Source of the DNA: an uncultured Alphaproteobacteria bacterium
Lineage (GTDB): Bacteria; Pseudomonadota; Alphaproteobacteria; UBA7879; UBA5542
Assembly (NCBI GenBank): GCA_903912365.1
Contig: CAIWGV010000035.1
Location: 1-58,373 of the forward strand
Length of the DNA: 58,373 nucleotides
Reading direction: 5' to 3'
Below the pieces are notes generated by a model, which was not told the DNA's origin, did not search any database, and saw only the letters and a program-made list of their open reading frames with translations. Of the stretch, positions 10,220-35,435 are shown piece by piece. Made by a program: the position numbers and the translations under genes. Position 1 is the stretch's first letter; each line of letters begins with the position of its first letter.

Positions 10220-10223
10220 AACC

Positions 10224-18524: not shown

Positions 18525-18607
<83 letters not shown>

Positions 18608-18649
18608 AAGCCACTTTCAAAGATCTTTCCTTAAAATCCAAAAATCCCA

Positions 18650-18668: not shown

Positions 18669-18707
18669 GAATGAGATGAACTTGTTTTTAATCAGCATCA
18701 TCCCCAT

Positions 18708-19517: not shown

Positions 19518-19518
19518 A

Positions 19519-19536
19519 TAGAATTTACAAATTCTA
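19519..19536 (+). terminator. AT-rich hairpin after the 18708-19517 gene
   Basis: TAGAATTT-AC-AAATTCTA is a perfect 8-bp stem starting 2 nt after the stop. It has only a weak T-tract (acctctttt). Confidence 0.3.
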
Positions 19537-19642
19537 ACCTCTTTTAATCAATATTAATTGACATTAATGGAGAATCTCTTTTATCTTCTCTCTTAAATTA
19601 ATCGAAATAGATTCGAGTATAAGAAAGAGGGGCAATTTCATC

Positions 19643-20650: not shown

Positions 20651-20877
20651 GAAGATTTATACCACTTTAACCCCTTGAAGGGCTTTCCTTAAAAAAATAA
20701 ATTTCTAGAGAGCCGTCGAACCTCTTAAACCATTGCCTGTATTGTGTTAGATATGATTGTTGAGAGGGGTTGAACCCCTTCTCAAAAAGAGCCATCGACC
20801 CAATATCGGGGTTTTCTCTTATTTATTTTTATCCTACGCTTTCCTTCATTGATTAACATTTATGAAATGAGGAAAAA

Positions 20878-21084
20878 ATGAAAGAATTACGATTTAACGA
20901 CAAACTACTGAATCGCCGAGAAGCGGCAGAGCTTTTGGGCACAACGGAGGGGACTCTTGCGGTTTGGACCTGCAACAAGCGGTACAACCTGCCCGTGGTG
21001 AAGGTGGGACGGCTGGTGAAGTACAAGCTCTCGGATCTGATCACCTTTATCGATAATCGCACGGTTTATGGACGGGAGGCGTAA
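20878..21084 (+). CDS. AlpA/excisionase-family HTH DNA-binding protein
   Basis: 68 aa. LLNRREAAELLGTTEGTLAVWTCNKRYNLPVVKVGRLVKYKLSDLITFI matches the MerR-like excisionase/AlpA fold pattern. GAGGAAAAA upstream. The stop abuts the next ATG. Confidence 0.75.
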   Translation: MKELRFNDKLLNRREAAELLGTTEGTLAVWTCNKRYNLPVVKVGRLVKYKLSDLITFIDNRTVYGREA

Positions 21085-22095
21085 ATGGAGCAGAAAAGAG
21101 AAAAGCCCGCTGCTGTCACAGACGGGCCCTATAATCTAAATCGCCCTCAGAATATCGTATCCTTCCCTGAAAATCAATCGAAGATTGTGACGTTGAAGGC
21201 GTTTCTGGCGCATCCCTGGCCCCCACGACAATTGATCTTGGCTCCGTGGCTTGCCACACAAAGCCTCAACATGATCTATTCCTGGCGAGGTGTGGGGAAA
21301 ACCCATGTGGCCTTGGGCATTGCCTATGCGGTGGCCTCGGGGAGTGAATTCCTAGGCTGGAAGGCGGATAAGCCAAGAGGTGTTTTGTATCTCGATGGGG
21401 AGATGCCGGGGAACGCCCTGTACGAAAGGTTAAGCGCCTTGACGAGCGGGGCACCAGACTTCCCTGAGGAAAACTTCCGGTTGCTCACCCCTGACCTTCA
21501 GAAAGGCTTTATGCCGGACTTGGCAACCTTCAAAGGACAACAGGAGATTGATCGGTTTATTCTGCCATCGACGGAGCTTATCATCGTGGATAATCTCTCG
21601 TGTCTACTGCGAGGCGATGGACGAGAGAACGAAGCAGAAAGCTGGATCAGCTGTGGCCAATGGGCTCTCGCCAAGCGGGCCCAAGGGAAAAGCATCATCT
21701 TCATCCACCATGCGGGCAAGAACGGGAACCAGAGAGGCACCTCCAAGCGGGAGGATATCCTTGATACGGTGATGGTGCTCAAACGTCCCAGCGATTATGA
21801 AGCCAGCGACGGTGCCCGGTTTGAGGTGCATTTTGAAAAGGCCCGGCATCTTTATGGAGAAAACGTGGAGCCTTTTGTGGCGAGCCTCACGCAGGAAGGG
21901 CCAACACAGTCCTGGGAGATGCTGCCCTTGGTGGAATCCAACAGGATTAAGGTGATTGATCTGTACAAAGAAGGATTGTCCATCAAGGACATTGTGGAAG
22001 AACTTGAGATCGATCGCAGTACTGTCTATAGGACCCTCAATAAAGCAGAATCGGAGGGTGAGATTAGAGCGCTGAAAGGGAGGAGAAAGGGGTGA
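21085..22095 (+). CDS. RepA-like AAA_25 (RecA-fold) ATPase with C-terminal HTH
   Basis: 336 aa. Walker A WRGVGKTH, Walker B LIIVDNLSCLL, IFIHHAGKNGNQRGTSKRED, and a C-terminal resolvase-type HTH (GLSIKDIVEELEIDRSTVYRTLNKA). TAA-ATG is coupled to the alpA-like gene. Confidence 0.75.
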   Translation: MEQKREKPAAVTDGPYNLNRPQNIVSFPENQSKIVTLKAFLAHPWPPRQLILAPWLATQSLNMIYSWRGVGKTHVALGIAYAVASGSEFLGWKADKPRGVLYLDGEMPGNALYERLSALTSGAPDFPEENFRLLTPDLQKGFMPDLATFKGQQEIDRFILPSTELIIVDNLSCLLRGDGRENEAESWISCGQWALAKRAQGKSIIFIHHAGKNGNQRGTSKREDILDTVMVLKRPSDYEASDGARFEVHFEKARHLYGENVEPFVASLTQEGPTQSWEMLPLVESNRIKVIDLYKEGLSIKDIVEELEIDRSTVYRTLNKAESEGEIRALKGRRKG

Positions 22096-22107
22096 AAACA
22101 CCCACTT

Positions 22108-22314
22108 TGTCGCATGTCGCATTCCCTAGGGCGTGCGACACGCGACAAACACCCCTCTTTTGTGCGACAGGGGATGCAACAAATTTGCGGCGTTTGTAGC
22201 TAGAACTCTTATAAGACATAAGTTTTACGCGCGACATCTCCTGCGACGCCTATGCGACAGACCTCTCCAAAACCGTGCGACAAATGGGGGTATTTTTTTG
22301 CATGTTTTGTCGCA
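22108..22314. repeat. iteron-like array of GCGACA/TGTCGC hexamers
   Basis: Nine perfect copies plus one GCGACG variant in ~210 bp. Two TGTCGC copies at 22108 and 22115; GCGACA at 22135, 22142, 22164, 22231, 22254 and 22277; one TGTCGC at 22308. The array sits immediately downstream of the RepA-like gene. Confidence 0.65.
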
Positions 22315-22389
22315 TGAAAAATGGCGTGTTTACGAAAGAGGATTTCAGGAGTTTTCTGACCTAAAATGTAGTTGATGTCTACACATATT

Positions 22390-24327
22390 CTAATCAGGCA
22401 AACTTTCTAAAAACTCTTTTATGCGAGGATGATAAAAGGAGAGATCATAGGCCTTAAGATAACTCTTGGTTTGAGGAGGAGAAGAAAAGCCTTTATTAAC
22501 CAGAAGTTTAAATATTTCTAACTTATCCCTATATAGGGCAATTTTAAGGAGAGTAGCTCCAATATTAACTTTATGTTCAGGAGAAGACGAGATAGCCTTT
22601 CCAAGATTTGTCTCATTACCAATCAAAAACTCAACCATTTTTAGGTATCCAAGCTCTACAGCGCATGTAAGAGCTTCGAGTTCAGAATTGTTCTGATCGA
22701 CTATGCTTGGGCTATGCTTTGCCAAAAGTTTCACCACATCTAAACGATCATACATAGCCGCCACCTCTAGAGGTGTTCTTCCTTTACTTTTTTTATTAAC
22801 ATGTGCTCCGTTGTCGACTAATATTTTAACGACCTCAGGGTTTCCAAAGCGCACGGCCACCATAAGGGGAAGAGGTGCAGAATTCATAATCTTAGGATTT
22901 TTTTTGATTAAAGACCTGATTTTTCCTACGTCTTGATTTTGAATTGCTTTTAGAAGAGGGTCTTTGAATGAGATTTCTTTTAACAAAAAGTCCACCACTG
23001 CAGGGTAAGCCACCCCTTCTTTAAAAGTTTCATCTATGGTAGGCAAGTCAATGTGGGCATTCTTTTCAACTAGAAATTTTATTATGTCCAAAGATCCGCG
23101 ATAAGCAGCTGCCATCAACGGCTTCTCTCCCCACTCAACATTAACCTTAGCCCCATTACCAACCAGGAATTTAACCACATCCAAATGATTGTATTTAATC
23201 GCTCCATCAAGAACGGTGGTACCAACAGAAGTAGCTTGATTCACATTAGCTCCATGTTGTACGAGGAACTTCACAACATCAAGATGCCCAAGATTGGATG
23301 CAAACATAAGGGCTGTATAATTGGTGCAACTGCTTATAGCCTTTGCTTCAGTATTTACCTTTGCTCCTTGCTCCACCAAAAATTTTACCATGTCTAGGCG
23401 ATTATAAATGGCAGCATACATTAACAAGGTCAGATCTTTTCTTTTTTTGGTTAAATCTGCTCCTTTTTTGACTAAGAATTCGACAGTTTCCCTATTTCCA
23501 AATCGAACGGCAATCATCAGAGGTGTAAAGCCAGAAAGGGGTTCAGAATTGACACAACTTGGATTTTTATTAACTAAGTCTTTAACTTTATCTACATTCC
23601 CTTCTTTTATAGCAGAAAAAAGAGGATCCTCAAAAACCATCTCTTTTTTTAGAAGAGTAGCCATTTCAGTGTATCCTTTTTCAACTGCGCTATCCACCTC
23701 AGTAAGCTGAGGATGTGCCCCATTTTCGATTAGGAGTGTAACCATAGAGAAACTATTTTTCTGTATGGCGGCGTCTAGTGCAGAAGAAACATAAAAAGCT
23801 TTGTATTGCTTATTAACGTCTGCTCCTTCTTTTATGAGAAATTTAACCATCTGTGTATCTTCAATTTCAATGGCTATTATTAATCCATCATTAGGATCAG
23901 CTCCATTTTTCACAAGAAATTCAACAACATTTTGGTGATGATTCCCTATAGTTCTAGGCAAAATCCTGCTATCTTTACAAGAAGCTCCCCGCTCTAGGAG
24001 AAATTTTACTACCTCCAAATGTCCATTGGAGGCCGCATCCACTATAGGAGCAATACCATATAGGTTCTCTTTTTTAACATCAGCTCCCTTTGCAACTAAA
24101 AATTTTAGTAAGGATAAATCTCCGGCTTCTGCCGCATAATGCAAAGGAGCCAACCCATTCTTTCTCCTAATATTCACGAGCTTGGGATCTTCTTTTATAA
24201 AAGCCTCTACCTGCTCAAGATTTCCCTTTTCAACAGCCTCCCAAAAACCTTTGGGCACTTTTGCGGAAACAAATAAAGGAACGAAACCTATTAGACATAG
24301 GACAGATAAAAATTTCTTGTATCTCAT
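22390..24327 (-). CDS. secreted ankyrin-repeat protein (~17 ANK repeats)
   Basis: 645 aa. Signal peptide MRYKKFLSVLCLIGFVPLFVSA. Reiterated 33-aa units with the G-TPL--A---G-L-VVKFLV--GA-VN consensus. Visibly A+T-rich relative to neighbours. Confidence 0.9.
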   Translation of the reverse strand: MRYKKFLSVLCLIGFVPLFVSAKVPKGFWEAVEKGNLEQVEAFIKEDPKLVNIRRKNGLAPLHYAAEAGDLSLLKFLVAKGADVKKENLYGIAPIVDAASNGHLEVVKFLLERGASCKDSRILPRTIGNHHQNVVEFLVKNGADPNDGLIIAIEIEDTQMVKFLIKEGADVNKQYKAFYVSSALDAAIQKNSFSMVTLLIENGAHPQLTEVDSAVEKGYTEMATLLKKEMVFEDPLFSAIKEGNVDKVKDLVNKNPSCVNSEPLSGFTPLMIAVRFGNRETVEFLVKKGADLTKKRKDLTLLMYAAIYNRLDMVKFLVEQGAKVNTEAKAISSCTNYTALMFASNLGHLDVVKFLVQHGANVNQATSVGTTVLDGAIKYNHLDVVKFLVGNGAKVNVEWGEKPLMAAAYRGSLDIIKFLVEKNAHIDLPTIDETFKEGVAYPAVVDFLLKEISFKDPLLKAIQNQDVGKIRSLIKKNPKIMNSAPLPLMVAVRFGNPEVVKILVDNGAHVNKKSKGRTPLEVAAMYDRLDVVKLLAKHSPSIVDQNNSELEALTCAVELGYLKMVEFLIGNETNLGKAISSSPEHKVNIGATLLKIALYRDKLEIFKLLVNKGFSSPPQTKSYLKAYDLSFYHPRIKEFLESLPD

Positions 24328-24375
24328 AGGTTCAGTCTAGCACAATTTCATCTACCAGGTAAAATTGGGAGTCCC

Positions 24376-24457
24376 GTTCCCCACACGTTCCGAGAAGTCC
24401 CTGCCCAGCTTAGCTATTTAAAATGCTGCTGGGAGGGCTGTGGAAATGTGGATAACT
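24376..24457 (+). repeat. ~82-bp palindromic repeat element, copy A
   Basis: GTTCCCCACACGTTCC...GGGCTGTGGAAATGTGGATAACT. The termini are imperfect inverted repeats of each other. Related copies at 25846-25927 (inverted) and 31289-31369. Confidence 0.8.
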
Positions 24458-24868
24458 GCACGCTCATTTTCGAGTTTGCATATTGCGTATGTTTTATAAA
24501 CGCCTCAATCTTAATTTTTCACCTCTCTCAATTTTCATTTTTTATCCCCTCCTCCCCGAGGGCTTTCCGCTCATTTGTAGGAAATTTTTCATCTCATTTT
24601 TCCCTCAAAATCCGCTCTTCACATTTCCCACTGAAACCCGCGTATTTCTGCAAAAACTGCAAACTCGGTTAGAGTTTGCGTATTGCGTATAAGAACTTCC
24701 CCCTCTTCCAAACTTTTTCCAACTTACAAATTCTATCTCCCAATAAGCTCTTCGCACCGATCTAAAAGGCCTCTCTGACCAACTGGAAGAGGAATACAAA
24801 AACTCAAGCAACATTCTCAGATTCAAAATGAAATAAGCGTGAAAAATTTATCGCAGGAGATATCTAAA

Positions 24869-25075
24869 ATGAAAAAGATACCGATTCCTTCACAACGCCA
24901 CCGATCCCCTCTCCTGCCTCTTGAAAATCAGCAAAACGATTTGGGATGGTTTTTAAGGAGATTCCAGAGTCTAAATTTTGAGACAAAAATATCCCCTAAA
25001 AACCTTGTATTTATTGAGTTTTTTGATGTTTTTTCCTTGATTTTTGGACTCAAAAAAGATACCATGAGAGAGTAG
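24869..25075 (+). CDS. small hypothetical protein (weak call)
   Basis: 68-aa ORF with AGGAGA 8 nt upstream of ATG 24869. It lies in an otherwise pyrimidine-rich, apparently degraded 0.85-kb spacer. No family recognised. Confidence 0.25.
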   Translation: MKKIPIPSQRHRSPLLPLENQQNDLGWFLRRFQSLNFETKISPKNLVFIEFFDVFSLIFGLKKDTMRE

Positions 25076-25172
25076 GGTTTGGAGGAATCCAGATTCATTT
25101 AATAGGCGTGAGACCCAGGTGTTTGTACCACCTAAGTCCCACTAATCACAACAAACCATTGGAGGGTTTATT

Positions 25173-25847
25173 ATGACTAAGTCGACTCTATCAGAAAATT
25201 CACACTTTGTGACCACCCATCGTTACAGAACGTCTCACAAACTGGGCATCCTGCTGGTAACCCTGGGCTGGAATAATACTAACCGAGGATTCTTCCTGAC
25301 TATCCATAAGGATGAGGAGGAAGAGGGAGGACTGCTATGGTCCCACCAGAATCAACAGAAGCCCTATCCCAAATCTCTGGGGTCATTTCTGGAGGTCTTG
25401 GAAGGGTTTGAGATCATGGTCCCCCAAGACATGATCACGCAAGTGAAAAAAGACAGAAAAGGAATCCGCAGCAAAATCACTTGGCATCTGGATGCCCCCT
25501 ACTCCCCTCAACACACAATGACCCATCATTATTTCCATACAGCTCACGAGGGTGTGCTCACGCATGTCCATATGGGGTGGAATAATTCCTTGGAGGGGTT
25601 CTATCTGATTATCGAGAAGGATGGATATGCGAAGGGACCCTTTTGGTCCAATCTTGATCGGCAGGATAAGCAGTTTCATTATCCTCAAACGTTGGACCTC
25701 TTTGTGATCGTATTGGAGAAGTTGAGAATCACTCTGCCTCCAGAGATGATCGAAGAGGTTCTCTCAGACAAAGGACGGAACAAAAACAAACTTGTTTTCC
25801 ACCACGTAGGGTCAGGAGAGTACACCCGTTGCTTGGTGTGGGAGTAG
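25173..25847 (+). CDS. hypothetical protein built from two tandem copies of a ~100-aa domain
   Basis: 224 aa. The two halves align: TTHRYRTSHKLGILLVTLGWNNTNRGFFLTIHKDEE...SLGSFLEVLEGFEIMVPQDMITQVKKDRKG versus MTHHYFHTAHEGVLTHVHMGWNNSLEGFYLIIEKDGY...TLDLFVIVLEKLRITLPPEMIEEVLSDKGR. GGAGGG upstream. Confidence 0.6.
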   Translation: MTKSTLSENSHFVTTHRYRTSHKLGILLVTLGWNNTNRGFFLTIHKDEEEEGGLLWSHQNQQKPYPKSLGSFLEVLEGFEIMVPQDMITQVKKDRKGIRSKITWHLDAPYSPQHTMTHHYFHTAHEGVLTHVHMGWNNSLEGFYLIIEKDGYAKGPFWSNLDRQDKQFHYPQTLDLFVIVLEKLRITLPPEMIEEVLSDKGRNKNKLVFHHVGSGEYTRCLVWE

Positions 25848-25927
25848 TTATCCACATTTCCACAGCCCTGGTGGCGGCTCCTTCATAGAGCATACGCCAC
25901 ACTGGGCTTGTGGAATTCGTGGGGAAC
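25846..25927 (-). repeat. ~82-bp palindromic repeat element, copy B (inverted relative to A and C)
   Basis: The reverse complement reads GTTCCCCACGAATTCCACAAGCCCAG...GGGCTGTGGAAATGTGGATAACT. It starts at the stop codon of the 25173-25847 gene. Confidence 0.8.
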
Positions 25928-26080
25928 TATAGAGAAATCAACCCGATCGGTATTATTTAGGTTCTTATTTACCCTAAATTACAACAATACACCCGATCGG
26001 GAGTTTTTCCTTCCATTTTCGAAGATATTTTATTTGACCCCAATTTAGGAAAAAACCCTCTAAAAAAGAGCCTGACAGTT

Positions 26081-27541
26081 TTATCCTCTCCAATTTCTTG
26101 CATCCATTAAATCATCAAAGGTAATCACATGATCAAAATATCCTTTGTTTAAAAGAGCTTGATCTGCCCCTTCGGGGCAAATAAGGACTTTATGAATAGT
26201 TTTGTTTTTTTCATTTGGGAAAAGAGATAACTTGCGTTCAAATTCCTCAATCACACTGGATGTTACTTTGCTTTGAAGATATTTGATTTCACAAATGGTT
26301 AACACATGGTCAGCCCTTTCAAAGACTAAGTCCACCTGAAATCCTTTTTGTTGTTGGTTTGTGGCTTTATTAAAAAAGCTACCAGACTGATAATGAACTC
26401 CTGAAAAACCTAAAATTTTGGCAATAACGTAATGATATTTACGACACCACCGTTCAAACGAAAGCCCCAACCACTTGTAATAACTATCTGTTTTTATAGC
26501 CCCTTTAGGATTGTGGTTATAAACTCCCTCCTTGATAGAGCGCTCTATCGGTTTAATGAATTTAAAGTAGTAATACAAATAATTATCCAGAATCGTATAG
26601 CGAGATAAGCGTGTACCAGAGTCCCGATTAAAAGGGTGATATTTCTCTATAAACCCACAGCCCTCTAAGTCATTCAGTAAAGAACTAAGAGTTCCGCCAG
26701 ATTCAATCCCTACGCTCTTGGCAATTTCAGAACGACTGAGAAAATTCTTTTTGCTCAGTTGCTCTATAATTTCTTTGTAATATTTATTTTCTGCCAGATG
26801 ACTGGTAAAAATGCGTTTATACTCATTAGAAAAAAAGCTATCTGCAGCAAAAGAGTTATTGCACAATCCTAAAAACAAAGAGGACTCCTTATTAACCCAC
26901 TTTAAATATTCTGGAATACCCCCTACTGTTAAATAGGCATCAAATACCTCTTTGTTGCTTTTTCCTTTTAAAAATTCCTTTGCTTCCAAAATAGTGAATT
27001 CCTTTAAAGAAATCTCATATTGGCTCCTATTATAGAGAGCCTTAGAATGCACCACTTTATCAATCATAAATGAGGGCGCAGATCCACATAGAAGCAATAG
27101 TAGCTCAGGGTTCTTTTTAAAGAAATTATCCCAGGCATATTTAAGGTCAGAAATCATATCTGTTTTATAATTAGCAAGCCATTGTAACTCTTCAAAGTAA
27201 ATGGTCCATTTCCCTGTAGCTGTATAAGTAGCTAACAGTTGAAAAAAATCTCCCCAGTTTTTGATCTGATCTTGAGGAGGCAAAGGCTCATTAACATAAA
27301 GACTCAGCTGGCTCATAACCCTTTCAAGCTGTTGTTTTTCATCAAGACCTTCAATGCCCTCAAACTTAACAATGTTTCGATCTCTAAAGGCTTGCTCAAG
27401 AAGTTCTGTTTTTCCAATTCTTCGTCTCCCATACATCACAACAATGCTGGCCTTTTTAGTTTTATCAATATCTGCTAATTTCTTTAATTCATAAGAACGC
27501 CCTATAAATTCTTTGTTTTTCTCTATAAATAACGATTTCAT
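26081..27541 (-). CDS. ATPase (PF01637-type P-loop) with wHTH and C-terminal DUF234-like PD-(D/E)xK segment
   Basis: 486 aa. FIGRSYELKKL...VVMYGRRRIGKTELL (Walker A), TIYFEELQWL (Walker B-like), a mid-protein wHTH-like LSRSEIAKSVGIESGGTLSSLLNDLEGCGFIEK, and C-terminal QVDLVFERADHVLTICEIKY (D..E.K nuclease-like core). Confidence 0.75.
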   Translation of the reverse strand: MKSLFIEKNKEFIGRSYELKKLADIDKTKKASIVVMYGRRRIGKTELLEQAFRDRNIVKFEGIEGLDEKQQLERVMSQLSLYVNEPLPPQDQIKNWGDFFQLLATYTATGKWTIYFEELQWLANYKTDMISDLKYAWDNFFKKNPELLLLLCGSAPSFMIDKVVHSKALYNRSQYEISLKEFTILEAKEFLKGKSNKEVFDAYLTVGGIPEYLKWVNKESSLFLGLCNNSFAADSFFSNEYKRIFTSHLAENKYYKEIIEQLSKKNFLSRSEIAKSVGIESGGTLSSLLNDLEGCGFIEKYHPFNRDSGTRLSRYTILDNYLYYYFKFIKPIERSIKEGVYNHNPKGAIKTDSYYKWLGLSFERWCRKYHYVIAKILGFSGVHYQSGSFFNKATNQQQKGFQVDLVFERADHVLTICEIKYLQSKVTSSVIEEFERKLSLFPNEKNKTIHKVLICPEGADQALLNKGYFDHVITFDDLMDARNWRG

Positions 27542-27555
27542 TTTTAAATACCTTC

Positions 27556-27670
27556 TTAGCCAATTAGCCTAGGTATAACACATAATTGGCTAAAAATAAA
27601 CCAATATTTCAGCCAATCACTATATAAATTCAACATGATTGGCTAAAATTATAATATGAATTTAGCCAAA
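27556..27670. promoter_or_regulatory. phased array of five AGCCAAT/ATTGGCT half-sites upstream of the ATPase gene
   Basis: TTAGCCAAT (27556), ATTGGCTAA (27585), TCAGCCAAT (27609), ATTGGCTAA (27638) and TTAGCCAAA (27662). These make two inverted pairs with 20-bp spacers at a 53-bp period plus one half-site. The first site is 15 bp from the start codon. Confidence 0.5.
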
Positions 27671-28098
27671 TAAGGGGAGATGTACAAAAAGAAAAGAAAG
27701 AAGCCTGATGGAAAGAATAGGGCCACAGCACCACAGTTTCGTTGGGTTTTCAGACTCTGAAGAAATATCTCTAAAGAGCCTGGAGCTCACAAAAATGTCT
27801 TTTTCCACTTTTGTGATCTATGAAGCATACATTTCAGAGGTCACAAATTTGTGATTTTCTGTCTAAATGTTTACCCACAGTCTACATTTTCGCATTTTTT
27901 TACAAAAAAATGACATTTGATACTCTTTATAAATTCTTAAGCAATCATACCAAGGGTATCATGGTGCATAAAAAATTAAAGAAGCTGATGTCTATATGAT
28001 ATCTCCCCACATAGTGACTACCTCTATCTGACCTTCTTTTTGAGGAATTTTCTGAGAGGGCCTACCTTGTAGATGAATTATGATTAGCAGCCAAGTTT

Positions 28099-28944
28099 TT
28101 ATATCTCTATAATTTCCTGAATTTCTGGATACCTATATTCAGCTTTCCCTACCTTTACGGTAAGATTCTCAAGAGGCTGAAAAATTGCCGCGTCGTGTGT
28201 ATGTCCACAAAGGACTAAAAAGTCCACATTCTTATTCTTTTTAGCGCTTTTTAAAAGAATCTGTCCGGTTACTTTGGAAGAAAAAAACGGCAAGTGAGAG
28301 TCATCTGTTTTCTGACCTCTAAATAAACAGGCTTCTTCAAAGGGAGGAACATGAACTAAAATAATCATTTTTTTTGGATTATAAAGAGTAATAGCTTCTT
28401 CAATGTTTTGATGAAGATCTTTGGCATCTCTATCCGCTAATTCCTGCATCTTTTTTAATCTGTGAGAGTAGAATTCAGCTTCATAAGTACGGGGGAATTC
28501 AGAAAATTCTGATAAAAACTCTTTAATATACCTATGATCGTTGAGCATAACTGTACTTTTTTTATAATTTCCATATCGTCCATCGGCAAAACAATCTTTT
28601 CCGATAACAACCACCCCTTCCTTTAAGACGGGATTATAATTCTTTAAATCTGTTGTTCCTATCCAGGATAAGAGGGGATTATTTTTTGTTAGAGAGACCA
28701 TTGCAGCACGGGTCTCCTCAACACTTCCGCGATAAAAATCATGATTTCCCAAAACAAAATAAATAGGAATTTTAAGGGCCTCCCCCATTTCGGTAAGATA
28801 TTTTTCAACATTCGGAGATTCGGCAATATCCCCACTTATGATAACCGCATCAGGAGACTCCTTTGAAATAGAGGAATAGAAAAATAATCTGTCCTCTAAC
28901 ATGAGGAAATTTAAATGAATATCTGTAATCCAACACAATTTCAT
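28099..28944 (-). CDS. metallophosphoesterase (calcineurin-like superfamily)
   Basis: 281 aa with all five MPE motifs in order: ITDIHLN, SGDIAE, GNHD, LVHVPP, GHTHD. Confidence 0.8.
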   Translation of the reverse strand: MKLCWITDIHLNFLMLEDRLFFYSSISKESPDAVIISGDIAESPNVEKYLTEMGEALKIPIYFVLGNHDFYRGSVEETRAAMVSLTKNNPLLSWIGTTDLKNYNPVLKEGVVVIGKDCFADGRYGNYKKSTVMLNDHRYIKEFLSEFSEFPRTYEAEFYSHRLKKMQELADRDAKDLHQNIEEAITLYNPKKMIILVHVPPFEEACLFRGQKTDDSHLPFFSSKVTGQILLKSAKKNKNVDFLVLCGHTHDAAIFQPLENLTVKVGKAEYRYPEIQEIIEI

Positions 28945-29111
28945 GTTCGGCTCCTTTATAATCTTGTATTCCTGGGCCGTCTAAAATAAAGAACAACATC
29001 GTAAAGTGTTTTGTGAGAAACAAGACAGAGAACAGAGTTGCACTTCATACTTGAATTCGGCATATAAATATATAAAATAATTTTGCTAAATACGAGGATA
29101 TTTTTACAAAA

Positions 29112-29618
29112 ATGCAAAAAACCTTCTTTATTGGGGATACCCATTTCGGACATAAAAATATAATGTCTTTTGAACCAGTGGCACGCCCCTTTTCTTCATT
29201 AGAGGAAATGCATGAAGTCATGATTGATAGATGGAATTCAGTTGTAGACCCCGATGATATTGTCTATCATCTGGGAGATTTTTGTTTTGGAAAAGGATGG
29301 ATTTGGAAGGCTTCCCTTTTGAATGGAGACAAAAGACTTATCCTAGGAAATCATGATTCTTACCCTATGGAAGAGTATCTAAAATATTTTAAATGGGTAC
29401 GAGGTGTTTACCATTGGAAGGATTGTATTTTAACTCATATCCCTATTCATCCTAATGGGTTGGGAAAGAGGTTTAAATTCAATATACACGGCCATCTTCA
29501 TAGCAAAACTGTAGGAGATGACCGCTATATTAATGTGAGCTGTGAAAGGAATAATTTGTATCCAATTGATGCTACGGAATTGTTTAAGCAGAATCAGCCT
29601 TCAGATAGCTATGATTGA
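29112..29618 (+). CDS. small metallophosphoesterase (phage-type)
   Basis: 168 aa. Motifs FIGDTHFGH, HLGDFCFG, GNHD, LTHIP and HGHLH. Divergent from the 281-aa MPE across a 167-bp spacer. Confidence 0.8.
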   Translation: MQKTFFIGDTHFGHKNIMSFEPVARPFSSLEEMHEVMIDRWNSVVDPDDIVYHLGDFCFGKGWIWKASLLNGDKRLILGNHDSYPMEEYLKYFKWVRGVYHWKDCILTHIPIHPNGLGKRFKFNIHGHLHSKTVGDDRYINVSCERNNLYPIDATELFKQNQPSDSYD

Positions 29619-29646
29619 GTTGGTGCAAAAAATGCACAAACTCCAA

Positions 29647-29667
29647 CTACCGAGAGATTCTCGGTAG
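29647..29667 (+). terminator. perfect 9-bp stem-loop downstream of the small MPE gene
   Basis: CTACCGAGA-GAT-TCTCGGTAG. There is no clear T-tract afterwards, so it could be a terminator or a protein-binding palindrome. Confidence 0.35.
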
Positions 29668-29909
29668 TTCAACACCTTATCAAGGCCCTTATTTCCCAAA
29701 AAGTCGCGCATACTGCAGAAAAGGACCGAGATATGACCAAAATATCGCTTACAGATTTACCTGAAGGGTTCCTCTCAAATACACCCGGCCGGGAGCTTTT
29801 CCTTCCATTTAAATCAAATATAATTAACTTTTCTTATATTTTTCCCTTGAAAATCAAATATAATTTATTATAATTAGGAATAAGGATGAAAAGTAAAATA
29901 TAGCTTACC

Positions 29910-31112
29910 ATGGCAAAGTTATTGTGGGGAAAAGTTTATTATCAAGATCGGTTCGCTGGGATACTCAGTGAAGAACCAGGGCATTCTATTGCCTTCACTT
30001 ATGACCCGAGTTACTTGAATGGAAAAAATCCCGCCATTGCCCATACACTTCCCCTAAAGGAAGAACCTTTTATCAGCCAGATGGGATTACCGCCTTTTTT
30101 TGACAATCTTGTATCAGAGGGATGGCTTGAGGTGGCCCAGAAAAGATTACTGAATCGGCAGGCCTCTCGATTCGAACTTTTGCTTGCTTTTGGGTATGAT
30201 TGCATCGGCGCAGTTTCTGTCCTTGACCCAGACCCTATTAAGCTTCAGAAAACATCTATTGATATGACGGATATGAAGGAAGTAGCTGTTTTGGCTAGTC
30301 GCGCGTCCCTTTCAGGGGTTCAGCCTAAGCTTGCGCTCATCGAAAGAGAAGGAAAATTTTATTCAACCCAAGCGGGAGAGCTGAGCACCCATATTGCCAA
30401 GTTTCCGTCTGCGGCTCACAAGCATGATGACATCATTTACAATGAATATCTCATAAGCCTTGCTTTTCAGGCTTTGTTACCGGGAGATTCTGTAGCCCAG
30501 CTTCAGATAGGATCTGTGGAAGGGGTAAAAGAAGAGTCTCTGATTATCAAAAGATTTGACCGGGCCCCCGGCGGGAAGAGAATACATTTTGAAGAATTTA
30601 ACCAACTTTTAGGACGCATGTCTCAAGACAAATATGAAGGCGCTTATGAAGATATGGCTCGGTTTATCAACACAACACCTGGATGTTTGGAAATTGAAAC
30701 CTATCGCCTCTTTCTAAGAATTTTGGCAGGCCTTCTGTTGGGAAATACAGATATGCATCTGAAAAACTTTGCCATGTTTCACACAGAAGCAGGATTGAGA
30801 CTGACGCCTTCCTATGATCAGCTTTCTTCCGTGCTGTATAAATATAAAAACATAGCTCTTTCCATGAACGGATCTAAGGATCTCCTCTTAGGAAATCTGA
30901 AGGCTAACGCCATTGTTCGATTAGGCGAAGGCTTTGGATTGAAAAAAGAAACCATCCGAATGGCGTTTGATCACCTGGCAGCCCATAAGGAGAGCGCTAA
31001 GGAAAAGATTTTGGAAGCTAAATATGGACATTTCTATTTCAGAAATAAACTTATTAACATTATGGATGCACGATGGAACGGAACATTCGCCTCGATTGGA
31101 GCTCTCTTGTAG
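29910..31112 (+). CDS. hipA: HipA-family serine/threonine kinase toxin
   Basis: 400 aa. HipA N-terminal coupling domain, P-loop-like SLSGVQPKLAL, catalytic GNTDMHLKNFAM, and LTPSYDQLSS. Confidence 0.85.
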   Translation: MAKLLWGKVYYQDRFAGILSEEPGHSIAFTYDPSYLNGKNPAIAHTLPLKEEPFISQMGLPPFFDNLVSEGWLEVAQKRLLNRQASRFELLLAFGYDCIGAVSVLDPDPIKLQKTSIDMTDMKEVAVLASRASLSGVQPKLALIEREGKFYSTQAGELSTHIAKFPSAAHKHDDIIYNEYLISLAFQALLPGDSVAQLQIGSVEGVKEESLIIKRFDRAPGGKRIHFEEFNQLLGRMSQDKYEGAYEDMARFINTTPGCLEIETYRLFLRILAGLLLGNTDMHLKNFAMFHTEAGLRLTPSYDQLSSVLYKYKNIALSMNGSKDLLLGNLKANAIVRLGEGFGLKKETIRMAFDHLAAHKESAKEKILEAKYGHFYFRNKLINIMDARWNGTFASIGALL

Positions 31113-31273
31113 CGGAAGCTATTAGACGCCGGAAAGAACAAGGGCTGACTCAAAAACAATTGGCTGTTTTTGTGGGTCTCAGTAGCCCCACTGTCAACGC
31201 CTTTGAGCAAGGAAAGCAGACCATAACTCTGGAATCTGCAGTTAAGATTCTAGCTAGCCTGGGATTGGCGTAA
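31073..31273 (+). CDS. XRE-family HTH protein (candidate HipB-like antitoxin encoded downstream)
   Basis: 66 aa. IRRRKEQGLTQKQLAVFVGLSSPTVNAFEQGKQTITLESAVKILASLGL is a complete Cro/C1-type HTH. The only in-frame ATG overlaps the hipA 3' end by 40 nt. Confidence 0.7.
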   Translation: MERNIRLDWSSLVAEAIRRRKEQGLTQKQLAVFVGLSSPTVNAFEQGKQTITLESAVKILASLGLA

Positions 31274-31288
31274 AGAGATCGTTTTAGT

Positions 31289-31369
31289 GTTCTCCACGAA
31301 TTCCACAAGCCCAGTCCGGCTTAGCTATATGAGAGAGCAGCCGTTAGGGCTGTGGAAATGTGGATAACT
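31289..31369 (+). repeat. ~82-bp palindromic repeat element, copy C
   Basis: GTTCTCCACGAATTCCACAAGCCCAG...GGGCTGTGGAAATGTGGATAACT, located between the convergent HTH and TraD-like genes. Confidence 0.8.
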
Positions 31370-31472
31370 TTGCTCGCCTCTTTCATTAATTTTTTGCAAA
31401 CAACCCCCTAAAATATCCAAAGACAGGACAAAACAACCCCTTGTTTTGTCCTATTTCATGAATAGCATGACA

Positions 31473-31940
31473 TCAAACTCCTGGAATCTTCAGCCTGTAA
31501 ACACTTCCATGGTTTCCAATCAAAGATAGAATTTCTTTCCTCACAGCTTTGCCTTCCCAGATCTGCTGGCTATTTTCAGATGTGAATCCACGCTCCCAGA
31601 GAGATTTCCGAACCTCTTCTGGAGGCAGCTTTTTAAATACCACCTGCAAGGCCGGAGGTTCTTTTTCGGGCTTCTCTGGTTTTGCGAGATACGGCAACCC
31701 ATGCTCTGCCCATTCATTGGCTACTCTTTTATCCCTCAATGATTCTTGGATGTGCAAAAACCCACCTGCCAAAACTTTGTGGTCAAAAGTTGAGATCCTG
31801 CATCGCTCCATAATCTCTCCCAGGCGGATGAAATTACTGATGCGCGCTTTGCGCTCCTTGATCTTTAATAATATTTCATGGCTCTGAAGCCTCGCCTGTT
31901 CCTGAGCGAGCTTTTTTCTGTCCTCTTGCAAAATATACAT
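31473..31940 (-). CDS. TraD-like conjugal-transfer accessory protein (tentative)
   Basis: 155 aa. KERKARISNFIRLGEIMERCRI..DHKVLAGGFL resembles the small alphaproteobacterial TraD motif (R-K-x-R-x-x-I-x-LGG..L-G-LL). The C-terminal LQVVFKKLPPEEVRKSLWERGF...WEGK segment is also seen in that family. Recalled from memory, not searched. Confidence 0.4.
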   Translation of the reverse strand: MYILQEDRKKLAQEQARLQSHEILLKIKERKARISNFIRLGEIMERCRISTFDHKVLAGGFLHIQESLRDKRVANEWAEHGLPYLAKPEKPEKEPPALQVVFKKLPPEEVRKSLWERGFTSENSQQIWEGKAVRKEILSLIGNHGSVYRLKIPGV

Positions 31941-32166
31941 CCCATACCCTCCAAACGGCCCTTTGGCCTTCCATATTACAAGCTGATATTACCAAAAATA
32001 AAGGAGATTTTGTAGTAAGTTTGAAAAGGGATTCGTCTTATATGCAATATGCAAACTCAAAGTGAGTTGGCGATTTTTGAGGAAATAAGGAGTTATAAAA
32101 AAATCTCGCCTCTTTAAAAAGGTCAACATTTCTATAAGAGGGTATGATAGATTTCTTGACTGAGGA

Positions 32167-33906
32167 ATGATTATGACAGAAAGAAAACTGGATCAAGAAT
32201 TGAAGGAAAAGACAGAGATTGAGGACTCTTCTGAGCATGATCTTCCGCCCATTACGGTCTCATCTTTAAAGCTCTTTGCTCAAAAACAAACCATTAAACC
32301 AGGAGTGATAACTGTATTTGTGGGGCCTAATAACTCTGGGAAGAGTCAAGCCCTTAGGGATATTAAAGCTTTGTGCACGGCTAAAGAGAAAGAAGGATAT
32401 TACTCGAAGGTAGTAAAAGAAATAGAACTGGATGGACTTCCAAACACTAAAGAAGAGACACAAATAGCCTTTCCCGGTCAGTGTGCTCTTTCTCTTAATG
32501 AGGCCAATCCACCTGAATGGGTTTGCTCTGTAGAAACATACTCCACAGAATCTGGATTTTTGCGTTTTTCGCAAGAAGACTATGCAAAAATATATGATAA
32601 AGATGAAAAAGACAGGATAAGTACAAAAAAGTATCTTATGCCGAACCGTCTTGTTCATTTGACTGGGAAAGATAGATTCTATCTAGTATCTCCACGAAAG
32701 AGTGCCGCCAGTTTTTTTGGTACCCATTTAAGGCTTTTAAGTGGAGTACGTTTGAATAAATTAAATGAAATCATTTATGAGTTTTTCTCCAAGTACATAA
32801 TTCCTGTGAGAAATGGCTCTAATAGCTGCATCTTAAAGGTGTCAGATTCCTTGCCCGATTTTGAGTTAATGCCTTCTTGGGTGTCTACTGAAGAGTTGGA
32901 GAAGCAAAATAAATTTTATAATAATTGTCCTTTGCTCGAAGATGAAGGAGATGGAATTCAAGCGGCAGTAGGAATCCTAAGTGCTCTCTTGGTGATGCCC
33001 CAAACAATCCTTTTAATCGATGAACCAGAAGCGTTCTTGTCTCCATCTCTTGCTAGGAAACTGGCAGACAAACTGACACGTTTGGCCAAAGAGAGGAGAG
33101 CTTCTTTGTTTATTTCTACGCATAGTTCAGATTTTTTGATGGGCTGCGTGGAGACTTCCAAAAAAGAAGAAGAAAATGACTTGAAGATCGTGCGTCTAAC
33201 GCATAAAAACGGATTTTCTACAGCTCATGAAGTTCCTTGGAAGACGGTTAAAGAATTTGATACCAATCCTGCTCTTAGAAGCTCAGCAGCTATTGATGGA
33301 CTGTTTCATAAAGGTACGATTGTAACGGAGGGACATAGGGATAGAGTTTTTTATGATGAGGCAGCTCGGATCTTTGGTTTAAAAGATAGAAAGGTTATTG
33401 ATTCAGGTGGAGGATTTAAACAGATTCACAAAACTATAGGACCTTTGAGAGAGATGGGGGTGGTCGCTGCAGCAATTGTAGATTTTGATTTCCTTCTAGA
33501 CACAGACGAAGATGCAAGGACCAGTTTATATAAATCACTCAATATAACTTCTCCTGTATTTAGTGACTCTTTGGACAGGAAATTGAAAGATTTTTTGGAG
33601 AAAAAACCGAAATGTTCTGAATGTGGTGGATCAAAAGAAGGTGAGAAGCATCCTGCAAAAAAAGGAGGAGTTAAGTGGATAGGCTTTTCAAGTAAAGACA
33701 AAAAGGAGCTAACTGAAATCCTGGTTAATCTGCATGCAAAAGGTCTATTTATAGTTCCGTATGGTGAGTTAGAAAATTGGCTTGAATTAAAAAAAGGTAG
33801 AGACTGGGATGCAAACTGGCTCTCTCGTCTTCACAACCAAACGCCTGATGAGTTGAAAGAAATAGAATCTTTTTATAAAGATATAAAGCGTTTCTTTGAG
33901 GAGTAA
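32167..33906 (+). CDS. OLD/PARIS-like ABC-type ATPase fused to a Toprim/DUF4435-like nuclease domain
   Basis: 579 aa. Walker A GPNNSGKS, Walker B/D-loop LLIDEPEAFLSP, H-loop STHSSDF, then TIVTEGHRDRVFYDE (VEGxxDxxFY-type Toprim Glu motif) and AAIVDFDFLLDTDED (acidic DxD-like cluster). Confidence 0.7.
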   Translation: MIMTERKLDQELKEKTEIEDSSEHDLPPITVSSLKLFAQKQTIKPGVITVFVGPNNSGKSQALRDIKALCTAKEKEGYYSKVVKEIELDGLPNTKEETQIAFPGQCALSLNEANPPEWVCSVETYSTESGFLRFSQEDYAKIYDKDEKDRISTKKYLMPNRLVHLTGKDRFYLVSPRKSAASFFGTHLRLLSGVRLNKLNEIIYEFFSKYIIPVRNGSNSCILKVSDSLPDFELMPSWVSTEELEKQNKFYNNCPLLEDEGDGIQAAVGILSALLVMPQTILLIDEPEAFLSPSLARKLADKLTRLAKERRASLFISTHSSDFLMGCVETSKKEEENDLKIVRLTHKNGFSTAHEVPWKTVKEFDTNPALRSSAAIDGLFHKGTIVTEGHRDRVFYDEAARIFGLKDRKVIDSGGGFKQIHKTIGPLREMGVVAAAIVDFDFLLDTDEDARTSLYKSLNITSPVFSDSLDRKLKDFLEKKPKCSECGGSKEGEKHPAKKGGVKWIGFSSKDKKELTEILVNLHAKGLFIVPYGELENWLELKKGRDWDANWLSRLHNQTPDELKEIESFYKDIKRFFEE

Positions 33907-34016
33907 TATCTTAAACTCTTGGAATTGAAGAGGAAGTTCCTCTCCCAAAAGTAGCACCAGGGTAGCACCGAAGAAAATCTCGAGATCCCTGAGGCCCCTA
34001 AAATCCTTAGTGAGAG

Positions 34017-34048
34017 TGGTGGGCGCGACAGGATTCGAACCTGTGACC
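34017..34048 (-). pseudogene. orphan tRNA 3' fragment (T-arm, acceptor 3' strand, CCA)
   Basis: The reverse complement reads GGTCACAGGTTCGAATCCTGTCGCGCCCACCA. No matching 5' acceptor GGGCGCG or D-arm lies upstream. It is different from the tRNA-fMet repeat and sits 18 bp beyond the integrase stop. Confidence 0.6.
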
Positions 34049-34065
34049 ATTTAATTGATGCAAGG

Positions 34066-35235
34066 TCACCCCTTCTCTCCTCCATCTCCGTGCAAGAATA
34101 TATTCTCAATGGCCTTTTCCATGGAGTTTCTGACGGCCTCCCGATTAAAACGAGCATAGATGGCCGTCGCTTGCTGGGACCTGTGCCCTAAGGATGCTCC
34201 AATGGTGGGCAAGCTCGAACCCATGATGGCTTGATAACTTCCCAAAGTACGTCGGATATCATGGATACGCAAATTTGTGATGTTGGCTCTCTTCAGAACT
34301 CGCATCCACGTTTTTTTGGGATCTGCGAGATGACCTCGTTTACTCTTCTCACTGGGGAACACCCAAGGGCTTGTAGCTTCCGCTTTCCGCGCCTCAAGCA
34401 CTTCTAAGGCATGGTCCTCAAGCGGCACATGGAGAGGCTCTCCATTCTTCGTTTCAGGAATACGCCATTCCTTATGGTACCAATCAATCTCATCCCAACG
34501 CATGGCTAGAACATTCGACTTGCGGGCTCCCGTTAACAGCGAAAGCCAGATATAATCTCGTGCCGCGGTATTCTCCTCTTCTTTCAAAGCTTGGAACAAG
34601 CCTGGCAGTTCAATGGGCTGAATAAACCGATCCCTCGATTTCTCTTTGAACTTCTTGATGCCCTCTGCAGGGTTCCTTCCCTCCCATCCCCATTCTCTGG
34701 CCTTATTGTAAATTGCCCGAATGCGTTCCAGAAGGCGATTGGCCTGGTAGAGTCCATTCTCTTCTTTTACTTTTTCGTGCAGGCTCTGAACTTCCTGCTT
34801 CGTAATGGTGGATATTTTACGCTGAAACCAGTGAGACAGAAATTTATTGACCTCCCGCTCATCGTAGATCCAGGATCGTTTGTACTTCTTACTGTAGCGC
34901 TCCATGTATTCCTGGAATAGATCTCGAAAGAGGGTCTCGTTCCGAAGTCTCTGACGCTTAGAGTTGGGATTAATGCCCTGAGCCACATCCCCCTTCGCTT
35001 TAAGGGCCAGTTTCCGCGCATTTTCCACGGATAATGTGGGAAAAGCTCCCAACACAATGCGCTCATCTCTTCCATTGATACGCTTTCGAAGGAAGAACGT
35101 TGCCGCACCCTTGGAGGTTAAATAGAGACTTAGACCTTTTTCCTTGTCGTCATGATACGTCACCAAACCCTTTTCAGGAAAGGAAAGTTTCTGGATACTA
35201 AGCTTCGTAAATGTAAATTTTTTGTCCTTTTCCAT
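34066..35235 (-). CDS. int: tyrosine recombinase/integrase, P4 (CP4-57)-like with N-terminal arm-binding domain
   Basis: 389 aa. N-terminal DUF4102-type segment (KLSFPEKGLVTYHDDKEKGLSLYLTSKGAATFFLRKRINGR). Catalytic residues are in order: LTGARKSN, HDIRRT, GHRSQQATAIYAR. Confidence 0.9.
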   Translation of the reverse strand: MEKDKKFTFTKLSIQKLSFPEKGLVTYHDDKEKGLSLYLTSKGAATFFLRKRINGRDERIVLGAFPTLSVENARKLALKAKGDVAQGINPNSKRQRLRNETLFRDLFQEYMERYSKKYKRSWIYDEREVNKFLSHWFQRKISTITKQEVQSLHEKVKEENGLYQANRLLERIRAIYNKAREWGWEGRNPAEGIKKFKEKSRDRFIQPIELPGLFQALKEEENTAARDYIWLSLLTGARKSNVLAMRWDEIDWYHKEWRIPETKNGEPLHVPLEDHALEVLEARKAEATSPWVFPSEKSKRGHLADPKKTWMRVLKRANITNLRIHDIRRTLGSYQAIMGSSLPTIGASLGHRSQQATAIYARFNREAVRNSMEKAIENIFLHGDGGEKG

Positions 35236-35264
35236 TGCCGCACCGTTGCCGCATTATTGCCGCA
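35235..35264 (+). promoter_or_regulatory. three TTGCCGCA repeats at exact 11-bp spacing (candidate arm-type sites, right end)
   Basis: TTGCCGCAccgTTGCCGCAttaTTGCCGCA starts at 35235, 35246 and 35257. The first overlaps the integrase start codon. Confidence 0.45.
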
Positions 35265-35381
35265 ATCCATGTTAAAAACCCTCTAAATTGGGGTACTTGC
35301 ATTAAAGAGAAAATACGCTAGAATCCTTTGTGTGTAAAGGTTTATTAAGATTTATTAAAAGTCGGAAAACACTAGATTCTT

Positions 35382-35435
35382 AGGCTCATAACCTGAAGGT
35401 CGTCAGTTCAAATCTGGCCCCCGCAACCAATTACT
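35382..35435 (+). repeat. right att core (displaced 3' part of tRNA-fMet)
   Basis: 54/54 identity to 18554-18607. There is no tRNA 5' half upstream. Confidence 0.9.

Follow-up and report, generated by a model that had tools for sequence, protein, structure and literature searches.

Probably independent defense- and toxin-type modules at the cargo end of a tRNA-Met-integrated island, and a metallophosphoesterase clade associated with toxin-antitoxin genes

We analyzed a stretch of 58,373 nucleotides (nt) from an uncultured Alphaproteobacteria bacterium (GenBank assembly GCA_903912365.1, contig CAIWGV010000035.1), referred to below as the window, and concentrated on the block at 26081-33906. 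An original prediction had described this block as defense-island-like cargo made up of five modules. All five, which comprise six open reading frames (ORFs), were found to be intact between these positions and to have significant family matches (Table 1). They are a P-loop ATPase with a weak winged helix-turn-helix (wHTH) and a nuclease-like domain (PDC-S27), two metallophosphoesterases (MPEs) of 281 and 168 amino acids (aa), here called MPE-281 and MPE-168, a HipA kinase with a downstream helix-turn-helix (HTH) gene, and an OLD-family ATPase-Toprim protein. As set out below, this block is likely to be the cargo end of an island of ~16.8 kb integrated at a tRNA-Met gene, a mosaic of mutually independent modules that lie in or beside a variable slot. 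One of its genes, MPE-281, belongs to an undescribed clade that is associated elsewhere with toxin-antitoxin (TA) and defense-candidate genes.

Table 1. Features of the island and of its cargo block, with positions in the window.
Feature	Coordinates	Strand	Evidence
tRNA-Met (CAT), attL-side integration site	18525..18601	+	ARAGORN, Rfam, alignment with the distal repeat
Integrative genomic island, ~16.8 kb	18602..35435	.	tRNA-Met and repeat of the tRNA 3' end as bounds
AAA_25 (RepA/DnaB-like) ATPase, C-terminal HTH	21085..22095	+	Pfam AAA_25 3e-24; PHROG primase/helicase families
Ankyrin-repeat protein, 645 aa	22390..24327	-	Pfam Ank_2 1e-105
82-nt hairpin repeat, copy 1	24376..24457	+	blastn, alignment
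Conserved backbone gene beside the slot, 224-aa protein	25173..25847	+	91% aa identity in L004
82-nt repeat, copy 2, inverted; left edge of variable slot	25846..25927	-	blastn, alignment; L004 homology up to here
33-nt direct repeat, left copy	25986..26018	+	91% identical to 29778-29810
PDC-S27, 486 aa: P-loop ATPase, weak wHTH, DUF234/PD-(D/E)xK nuclease-like domain	26081..27541	-	PADLOC, Pfam
MPE-281, metallophosphoesterase, 281 aa	28099..28944	-	Pfam Metallophos 5e-14
MPE-168, small phage-type phosphoesterase, 168 aa	29112..29618	+	phrog_547 'phosphoesterase' 1e-52; PDB 1xm7 4e-10
33-nt direct repeat, right copy	29778..29810	+	91% identical to left copy
HipA-family Ser/Thr kinase toxin (putative), 400 aa	29910..31112	+	Couple_hipA 9e-21, HipA_C 2e-39 (Pfam)
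HipB-like HTH downstream of hipA, 66 aa	31073..31273	+	HTH_3 1.8e-11; TIGR03070 couple_hipB 1.4e-13
82-nt repeat, copy 3; right edge of variable slot	31289..31369	+	blastn, alignment; L004 homology resumes at 31356
Small TraD-like protein (Ti-type relaxosome accessory), 155 aa	31473..31940	-	Pfam PF06412 1e-6, 28.9 bits (cutoff 22.3)
OLD-family ABC-ATPase/Toprim nuclease (putative), stand-alone, fits class 1; 579 aa (577 aa in public gene call)	32167..33906	+	PADLOC, Pfam, profile search
tRNA 3'-half-like fragment, 32 nt	34017..34048	-	T arm, acceptor, CCA; directly downstream of the integrase
P4-type tyrosine integrase, just inside the attR repeat	34066..35235	-	Arm-DNA-bind_3, Phage_int_M, Phage_integrase (Pfam)
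attR side: perfect direct repeat of the tRNA-Met 3' part, 54 nt	35382..35435	+	blastn 100% over 54 nt; alignment

The first gene of the block, encoding the ATPase-DUF234 protein, had been thought to correspond to no named system. This is wrong, because the protein matches a catalogued PADLOC candidate, PDC-S27 (model PDLC04984), with an E value of 3.4e-104, residues 11-479 aligning with positions 3-473 of a 474-position profile. The Pfam search returned ATPase_2 (2.9e-14) together with marginal matches to a wHTH and to DUF234 (E ~0.01), the latter below the Pfam cutoff. Both a Walker A motif (GRRRIGKT) and the residues D...E-I-K (at VDLVFER...CEIKY) could be read in the protein. It combines a full-length profile match with the fusion of an ATPase to a domain of the PD-(D/E)xK superfamily, and we saw no architectural difference from the catalogued candidate. 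Indeed, the ATPase_2/weak wHTH/DUF234 architecture is the same, and both are single genes in a mobile, defense-type context. PDC-S27 is listed as a single-gene candidate (ATPase plus PD-(D/E)xK) with 3503 archaeal and 4562 bacterial occurrences, validation of which is pending (PMC12988326). One member assayed in Escherichia coli B against phages T4, T5, and T7 was outside the four candidates that were protective (bioRxiv 10.1101/2024.09.26.614923). The presumed function of this single-gene module is DNA cleavage coupled to ATP-dependent sensing.

The proposed HipA kinase with a downstream XRE-type HTH gene was recovered as such, with matches to Couple_hipA, HipA_C, HTH_3, and couple_hipB. The motifs of the kinase are intact (Gly-rich loop SLSGVQPK, catalytic DMHLKN, and SYDQ), its N-terminal domain is present, and the adjacent putative antitoxin gene overlaps hipA by 40 nt. 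The top promoter-like site of the region (29847-29874, 11/12 positions) is located 36 nt upstream of hipA. A HipA kinase followed by an HTH gene corresponds to the hipAB/hipEB organization in reversed order (Gerdes et al. 2021, PMC8262856). Judged from their sequences, our two genes are such a reversed hipAB module, which they resemble both in the full-length HipA with its N-terminal coupling domain and in the overlapping downstream HipB-like gene. The kinase would be a toxin that arrests translation, with the HTH protein as antitoxin and repressor. The module most likely stabilizes the island or acts abortively.

The last gene of the block was predicted to encode an OLD/PARIS-like ATPase-Toprim fusion. 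The OLD part of this assignment stood, and the PARIS part did not. The best PADLOC model was Old (6e-23, residues 279-577 on positions 285-575 of 578), and the N-terminal ABC-type ATPase domain was recovered with Pfam (AAA_21, 1e-15; AAA_15, 1e-14). In the family alignment, GPNNSGKS and LIDEPE show conservation, in line with the Walker A, signature, and Walker B elements of such a domain. A family profile built from 40 of 2636 relatives was searched against PDB and matched TsOLD (6P74), the class 1 protein of Thermus scotoductus, with 7.5e-13, the alignment running through the Toprim Glu and DxD ('ivtEadsDR' and 'aaivDlDv'). The values for GajA (~1e-5) and for AriA (2.6e-5, ATPase domain only) were weaker. 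The C-terminal Toprim domain is invariant at E388 and D439 and nearly so at D441, and the Pfam OLD-Toprim model gave no match on the C-terminal 199 aa. We rejected an identity with PARIS, in which the ATPase AriA has the DUF4435/Toprim effector AriB as a partner or fused domain, since the AriA models match the shared ATPase region only and the fused AriAB model reached 1.3e-9 over residues 280-331. No UvrD-like helicase, retron reverse transcriptase, or AriB gene adjoins the OLD gene. On one side of it lies the TraD-like gene, which is on the opposite strand, and on the other lie the integrase and the end of the island. OLD classes are defined by genomic context, class 1 genes being typically isolated, class 2 genes (Gabija) having a UvrD-like helicase as neighbor and class 3 genes a retron reverse transcriptase (review, PMC10568477). 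The protein fits a stand-alone class 1 OLD rather than PARIS: like P2 Old, TsOLD, and the Vibrio cholerae protein, it has a predicted ABC ATPase followed by a Toprim domain with E and DxD, and it stands alone on a mobile element. It differs from the characterized class 1 proteins in sharing only ~20-30% identity with them and, unlike typical class 1 genes, it sits in a defense-rich island.

Both MPEs carry the five metal-binding motifs (DxH, GD, GNH[D/E], H, and GHxH), with invariant residues D8, H10, D39, N67, H68, H198, H248, and H250 in MPE-281 and D9, H11, D56, N80, H81, H109, H126, and H128 in MPE-168. MPE-168 had no Pfam match. Its family includes more than 4900 homologues and more than 588 IMG/VR loci, and it matched 2412 of 50,697 GenBank phage records, among which are phages of the T5-like, SPbeta-like, and Kayvirus-like types. 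Three of its closest relatives are found in phage early regions, where small ORFs and YopX, Lar, ERF, and capsid genes are nearby. MPE-168 is thus a widespread phage early gene, and it probably arrived in the island from a phage. It agrees in size, motifs, and full-length profile match with the PHROG 547 phosphoesterases (annotated as Ser/Thr phosphatases in T5-like, SPbeta-like, and other phages) and with Aq_1665 of Aquifex (1xm7). However, it is encoded in a bacterial island, whereas the PHROG 547 genes lie in phage early regions. A mycobacteriophage MPE, Gp48, has been reported to be an anti-defense nuclease (PMC12287305), which for MPE-168 is a lead only.

The two MPE genes were also proposed to form a two-gene immunity module. 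They are indeed adjacent, both are intact, and they are divergently arranged across a spacer of 167 nt. However, the proteins are unrelated beyond the GNHD motif, and their families hardly meet elsewhere. We scored co-occurrence within 10 kb in 80 viral loci in each direction and in 92 cellular or metagenomic MPE-281 loci. MPE-168 was found near MPE-281 in 2 of 80 viral loci (L074 and L075, ~4.2 kb apart) and in none of the 92 cellular or metagenomic loci, and MPE-281 was near MPE-168 in none of 80 viral loci. The sole other case was a phage-like contig, L008, with homologues of MPE-168 (3939-4451, 60% identity) and MPE-281 (9849-10670, 42% identity). This favors a pair to some extent, but the two genes are 5.4 kb apart on that contig, with unrelated genes in between. 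The larger of them adjoins a T4 Rnl2-like RNA ligase gene. Furthermore, a related strain, represented by contig L004, keeps MPE-281 without MPE-168, and no PADLOC model is matched by either phosphoesterase. We therefore did not retain the paired phosphoesterases as a two-gene module, a reading that we consider extremely improbable.

We next turn to MPE-281 itself. Its AlphaFold2 model had a predicted local distance difference test score (pLDDT) of 90, and Foldseek searches with this model against PDB and BFVD returned generic MPEs only (TM-scores 0.5-0.7), among them purple acid phosphatase, SbcD/Mre11, PptH, LpxH, and giant-virus enzymes. Because of this, no substrate class can be deduced from the structure. 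The family comprises ~4200 homologues and 119 IMG/VR loci, and a scan of genome contigs with the single MPE-281 sequence gave 5 loci. Clustering of 174 relatives by p-distance with average linkage placed the window protein in a group of 26 members with a mean identity of at least 50%, and the neighborhood counts given here refer to the other 25 members of this clade.

The original prediction had named a lack of enrichment near defense genes as speaking against it. For MPE-281 such enrichment was found, about 20 of the 25 loci lying beside TA or defense-candidate genes recognized by PADLOC. The neighbor was of the nucleotidyltransferase (NTase) type (PDC-M21, AbiE, or PDC-M05) in 17 loci. A pair of PDC-M21A (1e-41 to 3e-47) and PDC-M21B (~1e-70) genes stands directly beside the MPE gene in 13 loci, usually in the order M21A-M21B-MPE on the same strand with gaps of 10 to 113 nt, with a convergent arrangement in L005 and L190 and a divergent one in L180. 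The PADLOC definition of PDC-M21 includes two genes only. Three-gene clusters of PDC-M21A (wHTH), PDC-M21B (putative NTase), and MPE can be seen at L174 (4758-6816), L177 (4767-6807), and L005 (10001-12078), and the same cluster is present in L009, L010, L180-L182, L186-L188, L190, L192, and L240. The 14 PDC-M21-linked MPEs, that is, the 13 of the clade and that of L240, which is 40% identical to MPE-281 of the window, share 46-69% identity with each other, indicating that the linkage is old.

The remaining contexts were of similar kinds. Bona fide AbiEi/AbiEii genes are immediately upstream of the MPE gene in L175 and L011, an AbiEi-like gene is found in L185, and the MNT-HEPN pair PDC-M05A/B adjoins it in L006. 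In L178, a divergent PDC-S27 gene (1e-61, 26% identical to that of the window) lies ~10 nt upstream of the MPE gene. A convergent PDC-S01 and a split HipA are beside it in L183, and a HipA-N/HTH gene is beside it in L179. Only in L176, L248, and L189 was there no TA or defense-candidate neighbor. In a Fisher test against the lower-identity cellular clade (1/67), the association had p values of 3e-8 (PDC-M21) and 1e-11 (NTase-type modules), this clade rather than a genome-wide background being the reference. The lower-identity clade occurs in housekeeping-like contexts, such as beside MsrA. Taken together, the MPE-281 clade, of which the libraries and papers that we searched give no description, is associated with TA and defense-candidate genes.

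The viral members of the family have other neighbors. An RNA-ligase-like gene with a KxDG motif is located 20 to 1400 nt away in 15 of the 80 IMG/VR loci (L034, L035, L039, L042-L045, L050, L053, L054, L056, L057, L062, L065, and L070), and an RNA-ligase-like gene beside the MPE-281 homologue is also listed for L008 (8783-9724). DNA methyltransferase genes are near in 27 of 80 loci and HNH genes in 22 of 80, and many of the contigs are of jumbo-phage size. The RNA-ligase linkage hints at a role of the viral clade in RNA-end repair.

What could such an enzyme do beside a toxin module? AbiEii and MenT are toxins that extend tRNA 3' ends by added nucleotides, and antitoxin-induced autophosphorylation neutralizes them (PMC11375011). 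Phosphorylated AbiEii was reactivated in vitro by a generic Ser/Thr phosphatase, the phosphatase acting in cells being stated to be unknown (bioRxiv 10.64898/2026.01.19.700257). Since these toxins are under reversible phosphorylation, a gene-linked dimetal phosphoesterase is plausible as a dedicated 'arming' enzyme. We thus tentatively propose that the MPE-281 clade might be a dedicated third component of NTase-type TA or abortive infection (Abi) modules (PDC-M21, AbiE/MenAT-like, and MNT-HEPN) and perhaps of HipA modules, a proposal that we regard as possible yet rather doubtful. As a phosphatase, it would strip the inhibitory autophosphate from the toxin and arm it on demand. Alternatively, it would be an RNA 3'-end phosphoesterase that heals or trims tRNA ends modified by the toxins, and it is this second version that is suggested by the RNA-ligase genes near the viral members. 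MPE-281 relatives stand directly beside modules of the AbiE/MenAT/PDC-M21 kind (type IV/VII TA) in the 17 loci mentioned above, but these systems have been described without a dedicated phosphoesterase, and our literature searches on PDC-M21 and on AbiEii with phosphoesterase turned up no paper that connects the two. In PDC-M21B, a GG...DVD motif is accompanied by weak AbiEii/NTase matches (PADLOC AbiEii 3e-5 for one member, Pfam 0.002, and PDB 5uvd 0.035).

A tblastn search of the window found no PDC-M21, AbiE, NTase, or AbiEi-like gene. The local MPE-281 is therefore an orphan of its clade, and the trio of an MPE beside a wHTH gene and an NTase-type gene is not seen in the window. This orphan copy may have been re-used with hipAB or PDC-S27, and a local partnership is possible since genes of both kinds recur near the MPE-281 clade. 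In this alternative, MPE-281, and possibly MPE-168, would work with a neighbor, either as a phosphatase that re-arms HipA by dephosphorylation or as an accessory of PDC-S27. HipA is switched off by autophosphorylation. AbiEii and MenT are likewise neutralized in this way, and the in vitro reactivation cited above shows that a phosphatase can reverse it for AbiEii (PMC11375011; bioRxiv 10.64898/2026.01.19.700257). Additionally, HipA-like kinases are encoded within ~1-2 kb of MPE-281-clade genes not only in the window but also in L177, L179, and L183, and L178 provides a second, independent adjacency of PDC-S27 and MPE-281, ~10 nt apart. However, this is the only one of the 25 other loci with PDC-S27 adjacent, the gene order there is different, and the gap in the window is 557 nt. 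Moreover, hipA has its own well-placed promoter-like site, no HipA gene was found near MPE-168 in 80 viral loci, and co-location in defense islands is expected even without functional coupling. We consider such a partnership unlikely. The promoter-like site of hipA and the 80 viral loci also led us to reject a kinase/phosphatase operon of MPE-168 and hipA.

MPE-281 could also be unrelated to defense and be a host-directed effector or a metabolic enzyme of intracellular bacteria. Homologues with a named source belong to Berkiella, Legionellales, Coxiellaceae, and Megaira, an ankyrin-repeat protein is encoded on the same island, and metallophosphatases of amoeba giant viruses lead the structural matches among viral proteins (TM-scores 0.6-0.7). 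The housekeeping-like contexts of the lower-identity clade point in the same direction. Nevertheless, the clade of the window protein has TA or defense-candidate neighbors in 20 of 25 loci, often in an operon-like arrangement, and homologues are also found in non-intracellular lineages and in phages. No secretion signal is in evidence, no search aimed at one having been made. We hold this explanation to be very unlikely.

The modules were said to be separated by repeat elements, and this is in good agreement with our findings. Three copies of an 82-nt repeat are present in the window, all within the island as determined by blastn, and a further copy was found in L004 (8690-8774). The repeat forms a strong hairpin (-36 kcal/mol, z = -4.8, calculated for copy 3). 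It has imperfect terminal inverted arms with two convergent pairs of DnaA-box-like 9-mers, one of these 9-mers being perfect (TTATCCACA). It may be a terminator, a protein-binding site, or a miniature inverted-repeat transposable element. The inverted copies 2 and 3 enclose PDC-S27, the two phosphoesterases, and hipAB, and within this segment a 33-nt direct repeat pair brackets PDC-S27, MPE-281, and MPE-168.

Comparison with L004, which comes from a related organism, revealed what lies between these repeats to be variable. L004 is 87% identical to the window at 24463-25928, a region that includes the 224-aa gene and an 82-nt repeat. The next L004 genes are a RhuM gene and an MPE-281 homologue (63% identity), the latter in opposite orientation, and homology with the window returns at 31356-31439. 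Since the flanks are shared and the content is different, the segment between the inverted repeats is a variable cargo slot, which extends over 25846-31369 and is delimited by the inverted 82-nt repeats. These repeats may drive the exchange or inversion of cargo, and unrelated modules would have gathered in and beside the slot by recombination. The 224-aa protein beside the slot had no match in Pfam, PHROG, PADLOC, or NCBIfam. It contains an internal duplication (...GWNNTNRGFFLTIHKDEE... and ...GWNNSLEGFYLIIEKDG...), and the same 82-nt repeat adjoins its homologue in L004.

The block was also said to lie inside a mobile island, and here again the borders could be identified. The tRNA-Met gene at 18525-18601, the perfect 54-nt repeat of its 3' part at 35382-35435, and the tyrosine integrase together define the island, so that the 26-34 kb block lies in its right half. 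The tRNA-Met carries a C1/A72 mismatch, as initiator tRNA does. G+C content is 34-36% over 26-30 kb compared to ~44% in the flanks, which contain core genes (M24 peptidase, VanX-type dipeptidase, TrpRS, and MurJ). Overall, the description as defense-island-like cargo holds, in that the block is horizontally acquired, is rich in defense- and toxin-type genes, and occupies a slot that differs in L004. The island backbone would consist of the P4-type integrase, the RepA-like ATPase-HTH, the TraD-like protein, and the conserved 224-aa protein.

Could the block instead be inert debris of phage and mobile-element traffic, with both MPEs being phage-derived morons that have no current defense role? 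Both MPE families are common in viral contigs, as shown by the IMG/VR counts given above, and the relatives of MPE-168 are found in phage early regions. The low-GC patch points to a foreign origin, and a tRNA-like scar as well as a weakly terminase-like gene in L004 suggest a phage or satellite history. However, none of the six ORFs is truncated and their catalytic motifs are intact, the perfect 54-nt att repeat suggests recent or still active mobility, and the proteins are found again on contigs of several samples. We thus regard debris as quite unlikely. We favor the reading of the block as cargo made up of five modules that would work independently, namely PDC-S27, the reversed hipAB, the stand-alone class 1 OLD, MPE-168, and an MPE-281 that is catalytically intact by its motifs.

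Several points weigh against this reading or parts of it. PDC-S27 is an unvalidated candidate with one negative phage test. The divergent MPEs and PDC-S27 lie within one 33-nt repeat pair, and a co-transfer of the three genes as a unit is possible. As to MPE-281, the copy in the window lacks the usual partners of its clade, and the NTase nature of PDC-M21B rests on the weak matches given above, hhalign being not significant. Finally, the neighborhood sample is small (25 loci) and comes from short metagenome contigs, with the lower-identity clade as its comparison.

Other features of the island bear on its mobility and on its history. The AAA_25 ATPase-HTH protein is a probable replication or mobilization gene of the backbone. 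The match of the small TraD-like protein to PF06412 is weak but above the threshold, and the island may thus be mobilizable. A 22-nt repeat, CCATTGCCGCAC(T/C)GTTGCCGCA, occurs just inside both island ends (18647-18668 and 35232-35264) and is in tandem at the integrase start. These repeats are candidate arm-type integrase or excisionase binding sites. The tRNA-like fragment at 34017-34048 is an 84% complementary match to tRNA-Pro at 36312-36343, and 38 nt beside it (33944-33981) match the island/core border of L004. Possibly the fragment is an att scar left by an older integration, and the island would then be composite. In L004, a gene beside the shared backbone (5097-6602, minus strand) has a weak terminase RNaseH-like match (E = 0.002), which hints that this island family might be derived from, or lie beside, a phage or satellite.

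The 645-aa ankyrin-repeat protein, which is of the eukaryote-interaction type, shares the island with the defense and TA cargo, and three island ORFs had no family match at all. Outside the island, a 1156-aa ORF adjoins the tRNA-Met gene (14886-18356, minus strand). It had no Pfam match, its region holds a 108-nt tandem repeat (17840-18023), and the skew between its strands is strong, with AT skew down to -0.38. The best named relatives of the flanking TrpRS are from Holosporaceae and other alphaproteobacterial metagenome-assembled genomes (~60% identity), suggesting that the host is probably a Holosporales-like alphaproteobacterium. In view of these relatives, a chlamydial host was rejected. 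The window itself belongs to a contig of 86.7 kb from a metagenome-assembled genome.

P4-like satellites and phage-inducible chromosomal islands (PICIs) are reportedly hotspots of defense genes. The island shares with them its small size, its integration at a tRNA gene, a P4-type integrase, a replication-type ATPase, and a variable slot of defense cargo. No homologues of capsid-redirection or packaging functions or of P4 alpha, psu, or sid were found in it. It also differs from these elements in its host, an uncultured alphaproteobacterium, and in having an ankyrin protein aboard.

As a defense island, the block is ordinary, since three of its modules are of catalogued kinds and the proposed phosphoesterase pair is no unit. 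It is nevertheless a natural example of cargo exchange in the repeat-delimited slot of a small integrative island, in an uncultured and probably host-associated alphaproteobacterium. The MPE-281 clade, with its genetic linkage to toxin modules of the AbiE-like and PDC-M21 kinds, merits a systematic survey and a simple biochemical test. A phosphoesterase linked to them in this way is a directly testable candidate for the phosphatase that reactivates AbiE-like toxins in the cell.

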